From a virus (taxonomy: Duplodnaviria > Caudoviricetes), in the IMG/VR virus record IMGVR_UViG_3300032092_000001: DNA of 64,000 nt; one strand, given 5' to 3'. This document shows positions 4,677 to 49,039 of the stretch, one piece after another. Numbering within the stretch: position 1 is the stretch's first letter; the number at the start of each line of letters is the position of its first letter. The position numbers and the translations under genes are program-made. The notes under the pieces are model-generated. The model saw only the letters and a program-made list of their open reading frames with translations. It was not told the origin of the DNA and did not search any database.

Positions 4677-5504
4677 TTATTTTATAATTTTTTTCTTTTT
4701 TTGAATGTCTTCAAATAGCGAATCTTTAGCTGTAGATATTAAATCTTTTAATTTAAACCCAGCTATGGATATTTCCCCTGTATTATCTTTACTAACAGAA
4801 TCTCCACCAAATAAATTAGTTACCTCTTGTGTAAATTTTTCTCCGTCGTTATCTAAATCTAAATTTGCAATAAAACCTAACCCAAAAATATTTAAAATTT
4901 TAGATAATTTATCAGTGTTCTGTATTGGGGTTTCTTCAGTATCATCAAATTTGATATTACCTAAAGAACTTTCATCATAATTAGTTTTACAAAAACTATC
5001 AACATGTCTACTTTCATCTTTTGCAACTTCAGAATATGATAAATGAAAATGTCCTCCAGTTGAGTGAGCACTTGGATGTCTATACTCATCAATAAATGTA
5101 AACCCATTCATCTCATTTCTGGCCGAACATAAAATAATTGATATTTCATCTAAGGTTTTATTTTTATCTGAACCCCCACCACTAAATGTCACATCAATTG
5201 CATTTCCTTTTGTATGTCGACTATTGCCGAATTTTCTATGGAAATTATCGTTACCTGAACCAAATGTGAATTTAATATCCGGTAAATTTTCTTTAAAAGA
5301 TTTTGCAACTTTTTTAATTATATCCGCAAATTTGGAAGTCAGGTCTCCATAATCATCCATATTTGATTGTGTTTTATAACCTAATCCCGAAAGATAACTT
5401 TTCAAATTATTCGCATTAACATGGTTTTCCATAGACTCATTAATTTTCTCAATACCTGAGTTTTTTTTAAAGCTGTATATTTCCTCTAATAATTCTTTTT
5501 GCAT
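4677..5504 (-). CDS. Peptidase M15 (LAS/Hedgehog-DD-peptidase fold) putative peptidoglycan hydrolase
   Basis: SRHTKGNAID and HFH motifs; start moved to MQKELLEEIY after the palindromic promoter. Confidence 0.7.
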   Translation of the reverse strand: MQKELLEEIYSFKKNSGIEKINESMENHVNANNLKSYLSGLGYKTQSNMDDYGDLTSKFADIIKKVAKSFKENLPDIKFTFGSGNDNFHRKFGNSRHTKGNAIDVTFSGGGSDKNKTLDEISIILCSARNEMNGFTFIDEYRHPSAHSTGGHFHLSYSEVAKDESRHVDSFCKTNYDESSLGNIKFDDTEETPIQNTDKLSKILNIFGLGFIANLDLDNDGEKFTQEVTNLFGGDSVSKDNTGEISIAGFKLKDLISTAKDSLFEDIQKKKKIIK

Positions 5505-5517
5505 ATTTATAAATATG
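5502..5517. promoter_or_regulatory. Palindromic bidirectional TATTTATAAATA element between head-to-head start codons
   Basis: Perfect 16-bp palindrome CATATTTATAAATATG containing both ATGs. Confidence 0.7.
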
Positions 5518-6285
5518 GATAAAAATAAATTAATCTCACTGTCAAATAGATTAGGGAGAACTATTCTAAAGAAATATTCGGGTAAAATGAAACCTGGAGA
5601 TGCATATAATGAACTAAGAAAGGAAGAACAATATAGTTTTTTATTTAAACAACCAAATGGGCACATTGTTATTATCTGTTTTTTAGTTTCAATACCTGAA
5701 AGTCAAAGAGAGACTCAATTTGATAATATAGTGTCAAATTTATTCACATTTACATATTATACAATTGAATCTGACGAAGTTGATGAGGAGTGTGGTGATT
5801 GTTACGGTAATGGAACGGTCGATTGTAGTAATTGTGATGGTAATGGTAAGGTTGATTGTGATGAATGTGGGGGTGATGGTGAAGATTCAGATGGTGATAC
5901 TTGTAACAGATGTGATGGTGAAGGTGATTTTGAATGTGACTATTGTGGTAGTAGTGGACAAGAGACTTGTGACAGATGTGACGGACAAGGTTATATCAAA
6001 TTAGACGATACTTATGAAATTGAACAGTATTATTGCACATCATACGACCCAAATATACTTGAAGTTTGTGAAATGTATGACGAAGATGAGATTGTGGTAT
6101 CAGGTGATATTAATACTATTGAGAATAGAAAAAAAACAATAGTATTATATACCGATACGAGAAATATTGAGGAAAACAGTGAGTTATATAGGGGTGATAT
6201 CCATTTTTACGAATATAATAGGGACCCTGAATTTTATGGTAACGGTAACTATATTTCCGACACCCACATTAATGATAAAGATTAA
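5515..6285 (+). CDS. DnaJ-type Cys-rich zinc-finger protein without a J domain
   Basis: Six CxxCxGxG-type motifs; no HPD motif. Confidence 0.7.
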   Translation: MDKNKLISLSNRLGRTILKKYSGKMKPGDAYNELRKEEQYSFLFKQPNGHIVIICFLVSIPESQRETQFDNIVSNLFTFTYYTIESDEVDEECGDCYGNGTVDCSNCDGNGKVDCDECGGDGEDSDGDTCNRCDGEGDFECDYCGSSGQETCDRCDGQGYIKLDDTYEIEQYYCTSYDPNILEVCEMYDEDEIVVSGDINTIENRKKTIVLYTDTRNIEENSELYRGDIHFYEYNRDPEFYGNGNYISDTHINDKD

Positions 6286-20652: not shown

Positions 20653-21414
20653 ATGACACGAAAAGAAAAACAAGTTGACAAAGTTTTAAAAACAATAACT
20701 GAAGGTAAACAACATCTTTTAGTTGAGAATCCATTACTTATGGGTTTATTAAGAATGGGATTAATGAATTACTTATTTGGTGATGCGGTTAAAACACAAG
20801 TAGATAAAGTAATTCAAAAATATCCTGAATTATCTCCAACCGAGTTATTAAAAAAGGCAGGGTTAGATGTTACCGCTTCTGACAAAGATGTTGAGGAGTA
20901 CACAAAAGATAGTTATTTAAGTAAATCTGAAAAAGAAAAATTAGGACTTGGTGATACTTCTTATGGTGTCGGAGCAATGAGTTCAAATAATGATAACAAA
21001 TTTTATGAAAGAGTTTTGAAGGATTTAGGAGCACCTGTCACTGATGGGAACATTACATTCTTAAAGGCAATTAGACAGGCGGAAGGAGCTAAAGCAAGAT
21101 ACAATCCATTTAATACAACTATGAAAAAAATGGGGTCATCTTGTTATAATGTCTTAAAGAGAGATAATTTTGGTGGATGTAAATCAGGAGTTCAAAATTA
21201 TATGAGTGAGGAGGATGGAATTGACGCAACTGTTGAGACTTTAAAATTGGGTTACTATAAAGATATTGTTAACGGATTTAAAAATGACGTAGGTCCTAAG
21301 GAATTATCAAAAAGATGGGCGTCATCACCATGGGGAACAGGAGACTTAGTTAAAAAAGTTGTTGATTCCTACTTAAAGGGTGCTAAACCATCTCCACCAC
21401 CTATTGCTCGTTAA
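20653..21414 (+). CDS. Putative lysozyme-fold peptidoglycan hydrolase
   Basis: C-terminal QAEG...YNPFNTT...GVQNY.S.EDGI.AT..TL pattern; ITE/VEN leader. Confidence 0.5.
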   Translation: MTRKEKQVDKVLKTITEGKQHLLVENPLLMGLLRMGLMNYLFGDAVKTQVDKVIQKYPELSPTELLKKAGLDVTASDKDVEEYTKDSYLSKSEKEKLGLGDTSYGVGAMSSNNDNKFYERVLKDLGAPVTDGNITFLKAIRQAEGAKARYNPFNTTMKKMGSSCYNVLKRDNFGGCKSGVQNYMSEEDGIDATVETLKLGYYKDIVNGFKNDVGPKELSKRWASSPWGTGDLVKKVVDSYLKGAKPSPPPIAR

Positions 21415-23068: not shown

Positions 23069-23779
23069 ATGGGAATATCAGAATTGAGAGATTATTTGGA
23101 AACCGAGGTTTCAAAAAAGATGATAAAATTATTATCTAAAATCATGAAGAGTTATAATAGAGAACGTCTCTATCAAACAATTACAATATATAATGGTGAT
23201 GATGTTAATTATTATTTTTCACCTCATACAGAATCGGGCTCAATTGAACTTCCTCCATCTATAACAAATTATTTAGACAATCTTTATGAAAAAATATCTA
23301 ATATGGATATTGAAAGTAATGAAGATGATGTTAACTATTCAACAATAGAAGTTATTTTTGATTTTGATGACGACGTGTTTAAAGTATGGATGACTGATTA
23401 CGTATACGAAACTCAATCGTTTTCAACTGAAAGTGAGTTAGATGAAAACGATGAAAAAGAAATTATTGAAACTTTAAACCAATGGTTGAGTGAAGGTCAT
23501 AAATTTGTTAAAGTTGATTATAGTGGAGGTGGTGATAGTGGATATATTGAAAGTAATGGATATGGTGAAGGTGGGATTAATGATATTGGAATTCCAGCAG
23601 GTTTTGAGGACTATATCTATCAAATGCTTGAATCAAATTACGGTGGGTGGGAAATAAATGAAGGTTCTCAAGGAACCTTCATAATTAATACTGAAGAAAA
23701 GACTGTTACTTTAGAACACAACATGAACGATGAACGTCCTGTTGATAGTGAGTTACTAAAAGTACATTTAAACTATTAA
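23069..23779 (+). CDS. Acidic protein, C-terminal DUF6878-like domain
   Basis: VDYSGGGDSG...GGWEINEGSQG. Confidence 0.5.
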   Translation: MGISELRDYLETEVSKKMIKLLSKIMKSYNRERLYQTITIYNGDDVNYYFSPHTESGSIELPPSITNYLDNLYEKISNMDIESNEDDVNYSTIEVIFDFDDDVFKVWMTDYVYETQSFSTESELDENDEKEIIETLNQWLSEGHKFVKVDYSGGGDSGYIESNGYGEGGINDIGIPAGFEDYIYQMLESNYGGWEINEGSQGTFIINTEEKTVTLEHNMNDERPVDSELLKVHLNY

Positions 23780-24102
23780 TAAACTTGTATTGTTCTTTGT
23801 GGTCTGTCATCACCAAAATCAGGACAGAAATATACATTTACTCCGTCGTGATAGATTGCACCACCAACACCATTAGGTATCTTGTGTTTCTCATGGAATT
23901 TATCACCTAAGTCAATTTGATAATTTCCATCAGCAACTTTTATACACTTATTTTCCATTTCGTAACCACAATGATATTGTTGGTTTTTATTTTTATGTTT
24001 CATAAATTCATCAAATGACATTACAAATGATGCATTTTCATTCATTACTTTTTTAACAACTTTTCCTAATTGTCTTTCTGTTATCAAAATATTCTTTTTC
24101 AT
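23776..24102 (-). CDS. Hypothetical protein with LITE leader
   Basis: MKKNILITERQL..VVKKVMNE. Confidence 0.7.
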   Translation of the reverse strand: MKKNILITERQLGKVVKKVMNENASFVMSFDEFMKHKNKNQQYHCGYEMENKCIKVADGNYQIDLGDKFHEKHKIPNGVGGAIYHDGVNVYFCPDFGDDRPQRTIQVY

Positions 24103-24115
24103 ATTACTATAAATA

Positions 24116-25834
24116 TTAACTTATATTATAATTACCATTAAGATACATTTCCGCTTCAGAATTTCTTCTGTTAACTAATCCCTGTAATCCTAATGTTTTA
24201 AAATTTCTAATCTGTTCCGCAGCCCTTTTATGGTCTCCTTTCTTAACTGACTGAATGAAGTCAGATTGTCTAACCCCACCACATCCAGCATTAAACGCTA
24301 ATGACACTAATGCGTCAAATTGACCCTGAGTTATCATATAACTTTTAAGTCCTTTTGATTTCCATTCAGATAAAAAATTCCTAACACAGTCCGCAAACTC
24401 TTTAGCATCATTGTATAGTAATTTTAAAGCCCTTGTTTCATCTATAGTCATTCCCATTCTAACATCATCACCAGTGTGACCCCATCCAATAGTTGCAACA
24501 CCAACGCTGTCTTTATATGCTTGTAATGCCGGCTTGCCCTTTAATTTTGCCAATCCCTCGGCGTACTTAATATGGTCCCAAAAATCCTGACTAACTTTCA
24601 TTTTAGTACCATCTTGTAAATTACTTTCCTCAGGTACGTCTACAGGTTTTACAATTGGTTGTGGTTTATCATACTTTGTCATAGTACTATCCGACGCTGC
24701 GGTAATATCAGGCATTTTTATTTTTTGCTCATTAACTTCAGGTTTCAATACCGTCATGGACTCAGGAAATTCTTTACTTAAAAATTCTCTGTTTTTACCC
24801 TTATATGGAATATTTTGTAAAACGTATCTAATTGCATTTAAACCTGATACTCTCTTATCATTGGCATCCAATATTACCCAAGGGTGATTAACCGTTGAGG
24901 TTTTGTCAAATAATTTTTGTTTAAACTCTGAGAATCGGTCCCACATGTCTTGCATTTTCTCGTCATTAGGGGAGTATTTCCAATACTTTAATGGTGACGC
25001 TTGTCTCATCTGAAATCTAGTTGCCTGAGTCTCCTTATCAATTGAGAACCATAATTTAAACAAATAATCTCCATCTTTAACTAAGTCTTTTTCAAAGTCT
25101 TCAACGTTTTCCATAAAGTCTTCATATTCCTCTGGAGAACCGTATCCCATCACTGGTTCAACAAGTCCTCTATTATACCAACTTCTATCAAAGAAATTAA
25201 TCATTCCTTTTCTAATTTGACTTCTATATCTATCCCACCATGCTTTTCTCTCCTCAGGTGTTGGTATTCCCAATGCAATGATGTTGTAATATCTTGGATT
25301 TAAATTCTCAGTGTACTTTTTAATAGTTGAACCCTTACCCGCAGAATCTCTACCCTCAAAAACAATTATGACAGTTTTACCGGTACTTTTAATCCACTCT
25401 TGCATTTTAAGTAACTCAACTTGTAAATGATATAACTCCTCGTTATAAACTTTCTTTTTAATTAATGAAGGTTCTTGTGGTTCAAATGAAAACTCTTCAA
25501 AATCAGGTTCGTTACTTATGAAATCTTCTTTTTTTCTTTTCTTTAATACCTTTATAATATTTTCAAAATACTTGGTAATGTTTTTTTCTTTATTACCTTT
25601 TTTCATTAAAACATTTCTAACATTTCTCTCAAGTAAGTCAAAATTAATGGTTTGATTAAAACCCATATCCATAATATCATACAATAGAATCTCAAGGTTC
25701 TTTGTGTAGATATTATATTGTTTTAGAATATCCGCAATCTCATTCTCATATTGTTCTGTCGGTTTCTCCTCTTCGTTTAATTGAGTTCCGAGTAATTGTT
25801 TGTATCTGCTGATTTCAGAAATTAATTTTTTCAT
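24116..25834 (-). CDS. ppk2: Fusion: leader + polyphosphate kinase 2 + GH24 (phage lysozyme)
   Basis: PPK2: LQVEL.K.Q, FEGRDSAGKG, FDRSWYNR, KLWFSI; GH24: AEG...AYKDSVGVATIGWGHT, QFDALVS.AFN.G, GL.NRR..E; single uninterrupted frame. Confidence 0.85.
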   Translation of the reverse strand: MKKLISEISRYKQLLGTQLNEEEKPTEQYENEIADILKQYNIYTKNLEILLYDIMDMGFNQTINFDLLERNVRNVLMKKGNKEKNITKYFENIIKVLKKRKKEDFISNEPDFEEFSFEPQEPSLIKKKVYNEELYHLQVELLKMQEWIKSTGKTVIIVFEGRDSAGKGSTIKKYTENLNPRYYNIIALGIPTPEERKAWWDRYRSQIRKGMINFFDRSWYNRGLVEPVMGYGSPEEYEDFMENVEDFEKDLVKDGDYLFKLWFSIDKETQATRFQMRQASPLKYWKYSPNDEKMQDMWDRFSEFKQKLFDKTSTVNHPWVILDANDKRVSGLNAIRYVLQNIPYKGKNREFLSKEFPESMTVLKPEVNEQKIKMPDITAASDSTMTKYDKPQPIVKPVDVPEESNLQDGTKMKVSQDFWDHIKYAEGLAKLKGKPALQAYKDSVGVATIGWGHTGDDVRMGMTIDETRALKLLYNDAKEFADCVRNFLSEWKSKGLKSYMITQGQFDALVSLAFNAGCGGVRQSDFIQSVKKGDHKRAAEQIRNFKTLGLQGLVNRRNSEAEMYLNGNYNIS

Positions 25835-25899
25835 ATAATATAAATATTACGAAAAAATAATTGATTGTTTTTTAAATTACACTATATTTAATAAAAAGT

Positions 25900-26004: not shown

Positions 26005-26832
26005 ATGAAAGACACAAAAACTTATGACGAGTTAGTTCAAAAAATGAGAACATTCTTCCAAGAAAAAGGATTTAAAGAAGTTCCAACACAATCAAGATTG
26101 TCAATTTTGGCAGCATGTGAGAATCCTCACTCAATAACAACATTCAATTATCAAGGAGAAGTTTGGCCGTTACCACAGACAGGTCAAATGTGGTTAGAAT
26201 ACGAACTTCTTAAAAATCCTGAATGGAATGGTGTATATTGTATCTCAACATCATATAGACAAGAGAAGGACCCAATTCCTGGAAGACATGAATTAATTTT
26301 CCCTATGTTTGAATTTGAATCAAAAGGAGGAATGAAAGAAATGATAAAACTTGAATCTGAACTTTTGGATTACTTAGGGTTTGATAAACCAATTGAGGTT
26401 AACTACGATGATGTTTGTGAAGAATATGGTGGAGTCCCAATTTTAGAAAACGAACATGAAACAAGAATGTGGGAAGAGAAAGGTCCTGTTGTTTCTCTTC
26501 AGAATTTCCCATACAGAACCAATCCATTTTGGAATATGCGAGAAAGTGAAAATAGAATATTCAATAAAGTTGATGTGATTCTCTACGGACAAGAAACAAT
26601 TGGTTCGGCAGAAAGAAGTTCTAATGTAGAAGAAATGAGAAATAACTTCTACACTATTGAAAACGGTGGATATTCTGCCAAACTATTTGAACTATTCGGT
26701 AAAGAAAGAGTTGAGAAAGAATTAGAAGAATTCCTATCGTTTGATTTCTTCCCTCGTTTTGGTGGAGGAATCGGAATGACAAGACTCGCAAGAGCTTATC
26801 AGTTAATGATGGAAGAAGTAGAAACTGTATAA
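26005..26832 (+). CDS. Class II aaRS-like catalytic domain only (AsnRS/AspRS paralogue; asparagine synthetase-like)
   Basis: Motif 2 YRQE...RH..IFPMFEFE, motif 3 GGGIGMTRL, ETIGSAER; no anticodon-binding domain. Confidence 0.75.
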   Translation: MKDTKTYDELVQKMRTFFQEKGFKEVPTQSRLSILAACENPHSITTFNYQGEVWPLPQTGQMWLEYELLKNPEWNGVYCISTSYRQEKDPIPGRHELIFPMFEFESKGGMKEMIKLESELLDYLGFDKPIEVNYDDVCEEYGGVPILENEHETRMWEEKGPVVSLQNFPYRTNPFWNMRESENRIFNKVDVILYGQETIGSAERSSNVEEMRNNFYTIENGGYSAKLFELFGKERVEKELEEFLSFDFFPRFGGGIGMTRLARAYQLMMEEVETV

Positions 26833-27115: not shown

Positions 27116-27592
27116 TTAAAATCTTACAGGTGGTACCACAACAGTTCCTCCACCGCCACAAGGACATCCGCATTTCTTTTGCCAATATGACGGCCATTTA
27201 CATGGATTAGCACAAGTAGACGCACAATTTCCAGGTGCAATATCTTCTTTTACATCTCCATCGCGTTGTAATCTTTTTTTCTTTCTTTGTTCTCCGATTT
27301 CACCACCATTATCGTTAGATTGCATGTCTTTAATTGCTGACATCATTTCTTTCGCCTCTTTTTTCTTACCTGACTTCATTAATTCTTTAGCGTATGCTTT
27401 AAGGATGTCATACCCGGCAATACCTAATAAACCAATTGTAGTTCCAACAATTGTTAAAATTGCATCACCTGTTTCCAACGCTACCGGTAAATACTCCTGC
27501 TCATTTACTGATTTTTTTCTTTTTGTTTCAGTTACCAAATTTTTGATTAAATCTGTTAATTCAGATTCTGTTAGTCTTATTTTCTTTTTCAT
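27116..27592 (-). CDS. RLTESEL-leader protein with TM helix and Cys-rich tail
   Basis: MKKKIRLTESEL; ILTIVGTTIGLLGIAG; CASTCANPC...CGCPC. Confidence 0.7.
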   Translation of the reverse strand: MKKKIRLTESELTDLIKNLVTETKRKKSVNEQEYLPVALETGDAILTIVGTTIGLLGIAGYDILKAYAKELMKSGKKKEAKEMMSAIKDMQSNDNGGEIGEQRKKKRLQRDGDVKEDIAPGNCASTCANPCKWPSYWQKKCGCPCGGGGTVVVPPVRF

Positions 27593-48511: not shown

Positions 48512-49039
48512 TTACATACTTTTTTTAATCCTGTCTCCAACTTTTTGAAAGAACTCTAATAAATTTTCTTCAAGTTCTTCATTAAATTCTACATAGTCAT
48601 CACCATCGTGTAAGTCAAATGAATGAACGTTATAGTCCTCATCAGTATACATTGTTACATAATATTCTTCACCATCAATAAAGAATTCACCAATATGTTT
48701 ATATTCAACTGGGTCTTCGTCCCACTCTTGGGTTTCGTTATAAATGAATTTTACATCATAATCATCAACAATATCATTAAATTCGTAACCTGAATCAATA
48801 CTCACAATATCTTCCAATTCGTTGTCAGTAATATCTTGTGATTTATTATGTAAATATTTTTTTTCGGCCTTGGTTAATGACTCCATTCCGAATTGATTAA
48901 TTTTATCTAAAATACGATTGGTTAATTCATCATTTTCATTGATGACCCCCATCATTGATTTTATTCTTGATATTTGTTCTTGTAGTTTCATATTAGTCTC
49001 CTCTTTAAGTATTCTTCTTATGTGTTCTTGTAGGTCCAT
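48512..49039 (-). CDS. Protein with double leader and DUF6576-like helix pair
   Basis: MDLQEHIRRILKEE then MKLQEQISRIKSMMGVINE; RILDKINQFGMESLTKAEKKYL. Confidence 0.65.
   Translation of the reverse strand: MDLQEHIRRILKEETNMKLQEQISRIKSMMGVINENDELTNRILDKINQFGMESLTKAEKKYLHNKSQDITDNELEDIVSIDSGYEFNDIVDDYDVKFIYNETQEWDEDPVEYKHIGEFFIDGEEYYVTMYTDEDYNVHSFDLHDGDDYVEFNEELEENLLEFFQKVGDRIKKSM

Follow-up and report, generated by a model that had tools for sequence, protein, structure and literature searches.

A polyphosphate kinase joined to a lysozyme

The window analysed here is a stretch of 64,000 nucleotides (nt) from a virus of the Caudoviricetes (IMG/VR record IMGVR_UViG_3300032092_000001), with a GC content of about 31%. 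Between positions 24116 and 25834 its minus strand carries a single reading frame, running from ATG to stop, for a protein of 572 amino acids (aa), the plus strand being full of stops over the same positions. The protein consists of a short leader, a helical N-domain, a class I polyphosphate kinase 2 (PPK2), a junction and linker, and a GH24 lysozyme (Table 1). An earlier note on this DNA had described an uninterrupted frame with a leader, a complete PPK2 and a C-terminal phage lysozyme, and had placed the residues EVNEQ at the junction. This description is borne out by the reading of the open reading frames (ORFs) and by Pfam: the frame runs without a break on the minus strand, both Pfam domains are intact, with no stop or frameshift between them, the leader quoted is the true N-terminus of the protein, and EVNEQ is found at residues 366-370.

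Table 1. Features of the PPK2-lysozyme gene and of the genes on either side of it (window coordinates).
Feature	Position	Strand	Description
TATTTAT motif	25840..25846	-	5 nt before the ATG; candidate late-class promoter element, read directly
Leader, aa 1-21	25772..25834	-	amphipathic helix, then G16 and L19-N20-E21; proposed capsid-targeting propeptide
N-domain, aa 22-125	25460..25771	-	four-helix bundle (aa 26-99) and acidic connector
Class I PPK2 catalytic domain, aa 126-365	24740..25459	-	Pfam PF03976, Foldseek, phmmer
Junction, E366-V367-N368-E369/Q370	24725..24739	-	proposed internal prohead-protease site and recombination joint of the lysin cassette
Linker, aa 371-409	24608..24724	-	mostly disordered; low pLDDT
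GH24 lysozyme, aa 410-572	24119..24607	-	Pfam PF00959; stop codon 24116-24118
108-aa gene downstream	23776..24102	-	own TATTTAT; leader ending VMNE/N; right conserved flank of the lysin cassette
AsnA-like gene (class II aminoacyl-tRNA synthetase-like catalytic core)	26005..26832	+	divergent, conserved left neighbour of PPK2; context only

The fusion in independent assemblies

That the frame is an assembly or sequencing artefact joining two genes has a negligible probability, and is refuted for practical purposes by the presence of the fusion in independent contigs and assemblies; misassembly was rejected on these grounds. Nothing was found that speaks for an artefact, and the idea arose only from the short deletion that separates the unfused relatives from the fusion. 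In two lake metagenome runs from other studies (X7 and X8), which are independent of each other, contigs bridge the junction without a gap (X7 record 18, 24160-25052; X8 record 26, 24222-24893), and no insertions or deletions were reported inside the ORF. The best DNA matches to the window likewise come from lake and freshwater metagenomes. A search of 5.8 billion protein clusters found the PPK2+GH24 architecture at 90, 85, 67 and about 50% identity in independent assemblies. The cluster at 90% identity has 32 member sequences, at least 18 other protein clusters share the fusion architecture, many more clusters with the fusion derive from assemblies of JGI, ENA and Logan, and IMG/VR contains five fused loci.

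The cluster search also returned fusions of PPK2 to PF18013 and to Hydrolase_2. Residues 1-365 are also matched, at 65-70% identity, by hundreds of stand-alone proteins that are about 365 aa long. Since fused and separate states both exist, it is not the case that the homologues are always encoded as separate genes, which the earlier note had named as an argument against its own proposal. Among catalogued phages the protein has no close counterpart: none of 50,697 phage records was matched in a megablast search with the 10 kb surrounding the gene, and by tblastn no catalogued phage covers more than 59% of the 572 residues.

The PPK2 half and its N-domain

The PPK2 half is an intact class I domain. 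It matches PF03976 at residues 126-348 (E 5.7e-71; 239.2 bits against a cut-off of 22.3), over profile positions 3-227 of 229. The best NCBIfam model is the class I equivalog TIGR03707, with a score of 270.3 bits, which is under the trusted cut-off of 301.8, so that the protein is a diverged member of the family and is not to be named as the equivalog. The Walker A motif GRDSAGKGS (161-169), the Walker B motif FDRSWY (215-220, including D216) and the lid motif KYWKYS (283-288) are all present and are invariant across 50 homologues. The top Foldseek matches are Francisella PPK2 structures, with 43-44% identity and template modelling scores by target of 0.94-0.95, and the S. meliloti class I enzyme SMc02148 follows at 40% identity, class II and class III chains being ranked lower. 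A phmmer search against the PDB (E 1e-60 to 1e-69) agrees with the class I placement. The expected reaction is the transfer of phosphate from polyphosphate to a nucleoside diphosphate (NDP), giving the triphosphate (NTP).

The phage protein therefore has the same fold as FtPPK2 (5LL0/4YEG) and SMc02148 (3CZQ/6DZG), at 40-44% identity and with the motifs intact; unlike them, it has 125 additional residues at the N-terminus, consisting of the leader and the four-helix N-domain, and a C-terminal lysozyme. It is worth adding that three uncultured phage records of 635-735 kb (LR756502, LR745206 and LR756501) encode PPK2s that are 50-53% identical over residues 124-364 only, the leader and N-domain of the present family being missing from them.

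An AlphaFold2 model was built from 50 homologues, with a mean predicted local distance difference test score (pLDDT) of 78.7. It has a low-confidence helix at residues 1-22 (pLDDT below 50), a four-helix bundle at 26-99 (about 85-94 for the helices), the PPK2 domain at 127-363, a disordered segment at 367-402 (about 24-31 for residues 371-400), and the lysozyme at about 410-566. The two low-confidence segments, 1-22 and 367-402, begin or end at the cuts proposed below, after E21 and E369. An exhaustive phmmer search of 1.84 billion representatives with residues 1-125 found 20 proteins only; the matches long enough to judge (372, 478 and 539 aa) are N-terminal and in PPK2-sized proteins, most of the others being of 73-229 aa. 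The N-domain thus appears to be specific to this phage PPK2 family. Its fold resembles designed helical bundles at best (Z 7.7), and matches in the AlphaFold database have E > 0.4; as these values lie within helical-bundle noise, no fold is assigned. Read directly from the sequence, the second half of the N-domain is strongly basic.

The lysozyme half and other lysins

The C-terminal half is likewise an intact domain, matching Phage_lysozyme (PF00959) at residues 437-560 (E 5e-30; 104.8 bits against a cut-off of 22.3), and muramidase activity is predicted for it. Residues E426, D442 and T448 are present, and the column of the catalytic Glu is kept in all GH24 rows of our alignment (A1). The spacing from Glu to Asp is longer than in the lysin domain of the P0102 type, whose row is gapped here in the alignment. 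The nearest solved structures are GH24 muramidases and endolysins (E about 3e-13). PHROG endolysin families match this half and the best NCBIfam name for it is also 'endolysin', with a weak match (E 1.3e-7) to the PHROG family 'baseplate hub subunit and tail lysozyme'.

In spite of these names, the PPK2-linked lysozyme is probably not the phage's endolysin. The related genome G001, which carries a fusion, also encodes a leaderless 278-aa protein with PG_binding_1 and GH19 domains about 100 kb away from it, and the unfused G002 encodes a leaderless canonical GH24 protein of 152 aa, far from its PPK2. Given that these two genomes hold separate leaderless lysins, and that the lysins linked to PPK2 either bear a leader or are fused behind one, the fusion does not look like a dedicated leaderless endolysin. 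A third lysin-like protein of G002 has a leader, ending LNE/D. Among five related genomes, Hydrolase_2 (PF07486) had no match and PF18013 had one weak match, in G002. A hub of the T4 gp5 type (PF06714) was not found in a search that is uninformative, the control genomes also having no match.

Some of the lysins have a Trp-rich module of about 60-100 aa, W..WK.F....KK(W/Y)G...AK..F..(F/Y)W, between the proposed cleavage site and the lysin domain. It is present in a separate lysozyme (L007:11101-11997) and in some fusions (the linker of P0011; columns ~410-480 of the alignment), and may bind the wall or the membrane.

Origin of the fusion and exchange of the lysin

The related loci have a common gene order: the divergent AsnA-like gene, PPK2, a variable slot, and a leader-bearing gene for a protein of 106-108 aa. 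In most of them the slot holds an unrelated 205-aa protein, and most PPK2 orthologues are stand-alone proteins that have the same leader and no lysin. Homologues of the 108-aa gene come after the fused or the separate lysin in L001-L011. In L007-L009, from three metagenomes, the slot holds a separate GH24 protein of 298 aa, whose ATG overlaps the PPK2 stop and which begins with a 13-aa amphipathic leader ending ILE/Q. In L010-L011, PPK2 ends PESNEDN-stop, and the start of a 289-aa lysozyme lies 14 nt within the PPK2 gene; the leader of this lysozyme ends LLNE/Q. Removal of the 34 nt between two Asn-Glu codon pairs in L010 joins PESNE to Q in frame, which is the fused junction. Such a deletion removes the targeting helix of the lysozyme and keeps the residues around the putative cut. 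The fusion arose by merger of two neighbouring genes.

In a maximum-likelihood tree built on 166 PPK2 cores, the fusions fall into two clades, both of them well supported (values of 99 and 100 in the Shimodaira-Hasegawa-like approximate likelihood ratio test, SH-aLRT), and the type of lysin changes repeatedly inside each. The PPK2 halves of P0002 (fused to GH24), P0007 (Hydrolase_2) and P0008 (PF18013) are almost identical (branch lengths under 0.01), the sister of P0001 is a PF18013 fusion, and the GH24a tail is present in both clades. The 23 fusion proteins examined comprise GH24 fusions of three lineages together with PF18013 and Hydrolase_2 fusions, and all 23 keep a hydrophobic-Asn-Glu motif no further than 12 residues past the LKP with which PPK2 ends; the junction reads EVNEQ, NINEQ, EIGESKNINET or ETTESINHLNET. 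Beyond the junction, the linker differs in sequence and in length between fusion lineages. The lysin half is therefore a cassette, exchanged between relatives at a conserved junction.

An exchange of this kind has been caught in a natural population. Record 17 of the X7 contigs keeps the end of PPK2 and the 108-aa gene, and has 701 unrelated letters in place of 24105-24785; in the same sample the cassette-replaced form has a depth of 33.6 and the GH24 form 9.4. The intact two-domain frame, its birth from two neighbouring genes and the swapping of its lysin can all be read directly in these sequences.

Two stand-alone PPK2s (P0013 and P0015) are nested within a mostly fused clade. Their position suggests that the lysin half was secondarily lost or truncated, and hence that both fusion and fission occur.

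The leader, the cleavage motif and the head genes

All 54 distinct PPK2 orthologues begin with the pattern M..LL.E..RIK..MG-hydrophobic-x-x-E, which is followed by a spacer variable in length and sequence. Each conserved residue is encoded by 2-5 synonymous codons, and this variety indicates that selection acts on the leader as a peptide; a cause at the RNA level is ruled out by it. The Glu that ends the leader is kept in 32 of the 46 PPK2 genes that have no lysin joint. The leader has no hydrophobic signal or transmembrane segment. Similar leaders head many unrelated ORFs of the window, 17 of 105 having a leader-like N-terminus by a strict pattern.

IMG/VR contains 80 related loci, many on contigs of 209-321 kb. 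Five out of five related genomes in this size range encode a Peptidase_S77 protein, that is, a prohead protease of the T4 gp21 type (E 1e-22 to 2e-30), and a major capsid protein of the gp23 type, which together make this phage group T4-like in its head genes. In a MAFFT alignment, the capsid proteins of these five genomes read L-I-N-E/(A/S) where T4 gp23 has its known maturation cut, LTE/A. This putative capsid site agrees with the hydrophobic-N-E motifs of the fusion at E21 (L-N-E) and E369 (V-N-E), and the leaders of the separate lysozymes end in the same type of tripeptide.

One of the related genomes, G004 (the genome of L070; 268,739 bp), has two prohead protease and two capsid protein genes (L084/L095 and L089/L092), in two head modules near 31-35 kb and 233-238 kb. 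Either this genome has a second copy of its head genes or two phages have been joined in the contig.

The TATTTAT motif and neighbouring genes

Nearly every PPK2 orthologue has the motif (A/G)TATTTAT upstream of it, and so does the prohead protease gene in L085. The window has 55 TATTTAT sites on its two strands (one of them, at 24109-24115, lying just before the 108-aa gene), and in 29 of its 105 ORFs the motif is at most 40 nt upstream. Its distance to the ATG is often just 4-6 nt, in which case the mRNAs would be nearly leaderless. The motif is tied to the genes that bear leaders, preceding 11 of 17 of these and 18 of the other 88 (Fisher p 5e-4). Of the ORFs from 49041 to the end of the window, the part in which the recognisable metabolic genes are located, it precedes only one (53995).

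Among the neighbouring genes Pfam made only three assignments: the AsnA-like gene, DUF6878 and a weak match to CarboxypepD_reg. The AsnA-like gene matches tRNA-synt_2 (E 1e-13) and lacks the anticodon domain; it is also the only neighbour matched in PHROGs (phrog_29758, E 4e-97). Its position and orientation are identical in L007 (8957-9817), and it is the divergent neighbour of PPK2 in distant relatives as well. The ORFs at 4677-5666 and 20653-21414 match no Pfam family at E 0.01. On the minus strand, 27116-27592 encodes a 158-aa protein with a leader of type A, the motif SVNE/Q, one hydrophobic helix and a C-terminus rich in Cys, Gly and Pro; this could be a membrane-inserting cargo or a holin-like protein. 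The ORF at 48512-49039, also on the minus strand, has two types of leader in tandem at one N-terminus, M.LQE.IRRILKEE and then MKLQEQISRIKSMMGVINE/N, which could be alternative starts or a double tag.

Proposed function

The earlier note had offered two explanations of the fusion. One was a polyprotein that is cleaved at xNE sites as the head matures and that delivers both enzymes on infection. This is the best-supported reading, the support being comparative: the S77 protease and the capsid I-N-E site in relatives, the separate lysozymes that bear leaders, the conserved junction, and the agreement of the AlphaFold2 segments with the proposed cuts. The other, a lysin coupled to polyphosphate or NTP status, found no specific support, the relatives having separate leaderless endolysins.

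We give an even chance to the proposal that the protein is a head-packaged cargo polyprotein, which would be cut after E21 and E369 and injected together with the DNA. Beyond the reality of the fusion, the gene merger and the exchangeable lysin, we infer every step of what follows. The gene would be that of a late-expressed cargo polyprotein of a T4-like jumbo phage, and its 21-aa leader, acting like a T4 capsid-targeting sequence, would carry the polyprotein into the assembling prohead. There a gp21-type protease would cut after E21 (L-N-E) and after E369 (V-N-E/Q), releasing a 348-aa PPK2, comprising the N-domain and the kinase, and a 203-aa lysozyme inside the head. Once fused, the lysozyme would need no targeting helix of its own, and would retain only a cleavage site. 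The mechanism is proposed by analogy with the known packaging of Alt and the internal proteins of T4. At infection both enzymes would pass out through the tail along with the DNA, the lysozyme opening the peptidoglycan locally and PPK2, in the cytoplasm, turning ADP and GDP into ATP and GTP at the expense of host polyphosphate, before any phage gene is expressed. PPK2 may also strip away polyphosphate that helps to silence foreign DNA, given that polyphosphate with Hfq represses prophage and horizontally acquired genes (PMC11894788).

A number of observations weigh against this proposal. The genes for the prohead protease and the capsid protein are not in the 64-kb window, and the 'late' status of TATTTAT is one that we infer. 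The 17 ORFs with leader-like N-termini, out of 105, would be much cargo for one capsid. Hydrophobic-x-E is a common tripeptide, and [LIVM]NE shows no significant enrichment at residues 9-42 relative to the rest of the window's proteins (ratio 1.47, Fisher p 0.36), so that the argument from the motif rests on its conservation at specific sites only. A lysin inside the head is unusual in a contractile-tailed T4-like phage, in which the wall enzyme is normally on the baseplate. Finally, at eight related loci a leaderless endolysin-type lysin with PG_binding_1 comes right after PPK2, so that the slot for the lysin does not hold cargo in every case.

These eight loci, at which PPK2 adjoins lysis functions, fit an alternative in which the two halves were fused by chance and the product remains uncut in the cytoplasm as a bifunctional late enzyme. 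PPK2 would then boost ATP and GTP, for example for packaging a 285-kb genome, the lysozyme would be the main or an auxiliary endolysin, acting after a holin has opened the membrane, and the N-terminal helix would serve in oligomerisation or regulation. The lack of significant motif enrichment across the window and the 'endolysin' names given by PHROG and NCBIfam to the C-terminal half are in line with it, and the usual interpretation of viral ppk2 is that of an auxiliary metabolic gene (PMC13188868). We consider it unlikely, while giving it real weight, because it leaves unexplained the conservation of the leader at the protein level in all orthologues, the short leaders ending Asn-Glu/Gln on the separate lysozymes beside PPK2, and the hydrophobic-N-E junction that is kept in every lysin swap; moreover, ordinary leaderless lysins are encoded at other places in both the fused G001 and the unfused G002.

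The phage particle could also be the destination in another way, with the protein uncut at the junction and serving as a virion-associated structural protein or an entry enzyme of the tail or baseplate, the PPK2 fold being an adaptor or simply attached. Contractile-tailed phages usually bear their entry lysin on the tail (T4 gp5, phiKZ gp181), the swapping of lysin domains is typical of virion-associated hydrolases, and the weak PHROG match to tail lysozymes points the same way. Its probability is nevertheless low: the strict conservation of all the catalytic motifs of PPK2 speaks for its use as an enzyme, the majority of orthologues are PPK2s on their own, with the same leader and no lysin, and the junction matches the capsid maturation site and lies within a disordered linker. 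Lowest of the three we rate a leader that targets some site other than the capsid, such as polyphosphate granules, the membrane or a phage-made compartment, with the junction motif as a footprint of recombination. The Asn-Glu codon pairs are short direct repeats usable for deletion or recombination, and so the conservation of the junction could be mechanistic and not functional; the strongly basic second half of the N-domain might also suit such a target. Against this stand the leader Glu kept in PPK2 genes without a lysin joint, the same leader types at the head of many unrelated proteins, the lack of a hydrophobic signal or transmembrane segment, and the presence in relatives of a T4-type protease with a matching capsid site.

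Comparison with known systems

The closest model for the cargo polyprotein is provided by T4. According to the summary of Mullaney and Black (1996) in PMC5694885, a capsid-targeting sequence attaches Alt and the internal proteins IPI-III to the scaffolding core, and gp21 trims them, Alt at both ends; and the prohead proteases of T4 and of the giant phages all cut after Glu (PMC5694885). The present family resembles this system in having a short N-terminal amphipathic leader that ends hydrophobic-x-Glu and is portable between unrelated proteins, and a gp21-family protease in the phage group. T4 Alt is, moreover, an enzyme that is packaged, injected and trimmed at both ends. Unlike those of T4, the leader here has 21 aa instead of 10, with no sequence similarity, the P2 residue is preferentially Asn, and the system is known from sequence alone; the cargo is a polyphosphate kinase and a lysozyme in one polyprotein, with a proposed internal cut.

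In the giant phages phiKZ, 201phi2-1 and SPN3US, ejection or inner-body proteins are processed by gp175/gp245 (PMC5694885, PMC7411985, PMC10052503). As proposed here, their heads contain proteins, dozens of different ones, in which a short motif is cleaved after its Glu, in some of them at several sites, and which are ejected into the host. Their proteases are however of family S80, cutting at A/S/G-x-E, whereas the present group has S77 head genes and hydrophobic-(N)-E sites, and no PPK2 or head-internal lysozyme cargo is described there.

Wall-degrading domains that enter with the particle have well-known precedents. T7 gp16 is an internal core protein with a lytic transglycosylase domain, and gp16 and T4 gp5 are structural, in the ejectosome and the baseplate respectively. 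As in these proteins, a wall-degrading domain fused to a non-lytic part is proposed to be carried by the particle for entry, and the lysin modules are exchangeable; unlike in these, the lysin is joined to a soluble metabolic enzyme, by a link that looks made to be cut.

Virus-encoded ppk2 in metagenomes has been described as an auxiliary metabolic gene that changes polyphosphate accumulation in the infected cell, with no leader, lysin fusion or protein delivery (PMC13188868). Literature searches combining PPK2 with jumbo phage, with virion and lysozyme, or with auxiliary metabolic genes found no PPK2-lysin fusion and no PPK2 virion cargo. The logic of packaging is already known, from T4 and the giant phages; what is new is the cargo, its form as a polyprotein and the joint of the cassette.

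Implications

In its widest form, the proposal is that widespread freshwater T4-like jumbo phages pre-load a polyphosphate-driven NTP regenerator in the capsid and inject it as protein, in some lineages as a polyprotein with a swappable, protease-released hydrolase. This we advance tentatively, at somewhat short of an even chance. If true, the auxiliary metabolism of a phage need not await gene expression: the enzyme would tap host polyphosphate at once, which would be helpful in starved lake bacteria, and an 'injected auxiliary metabolic enzyme' would power or de-silence the first minutes of infection. The T4 system of capsid targeting and gp21 cleavage would then extend to a large group of uncultured phages.

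The fusion can be regarded as a natural experiment, in which a lysozyme placed behind the PPK2 leader drops its own leader and retains the cleavage site alone. The leader together with the proposed cleavage site might serve to tag enzymes for loading into large capsids, and the cassette joint shows a route by which entry lysins may be exchanged between phages.

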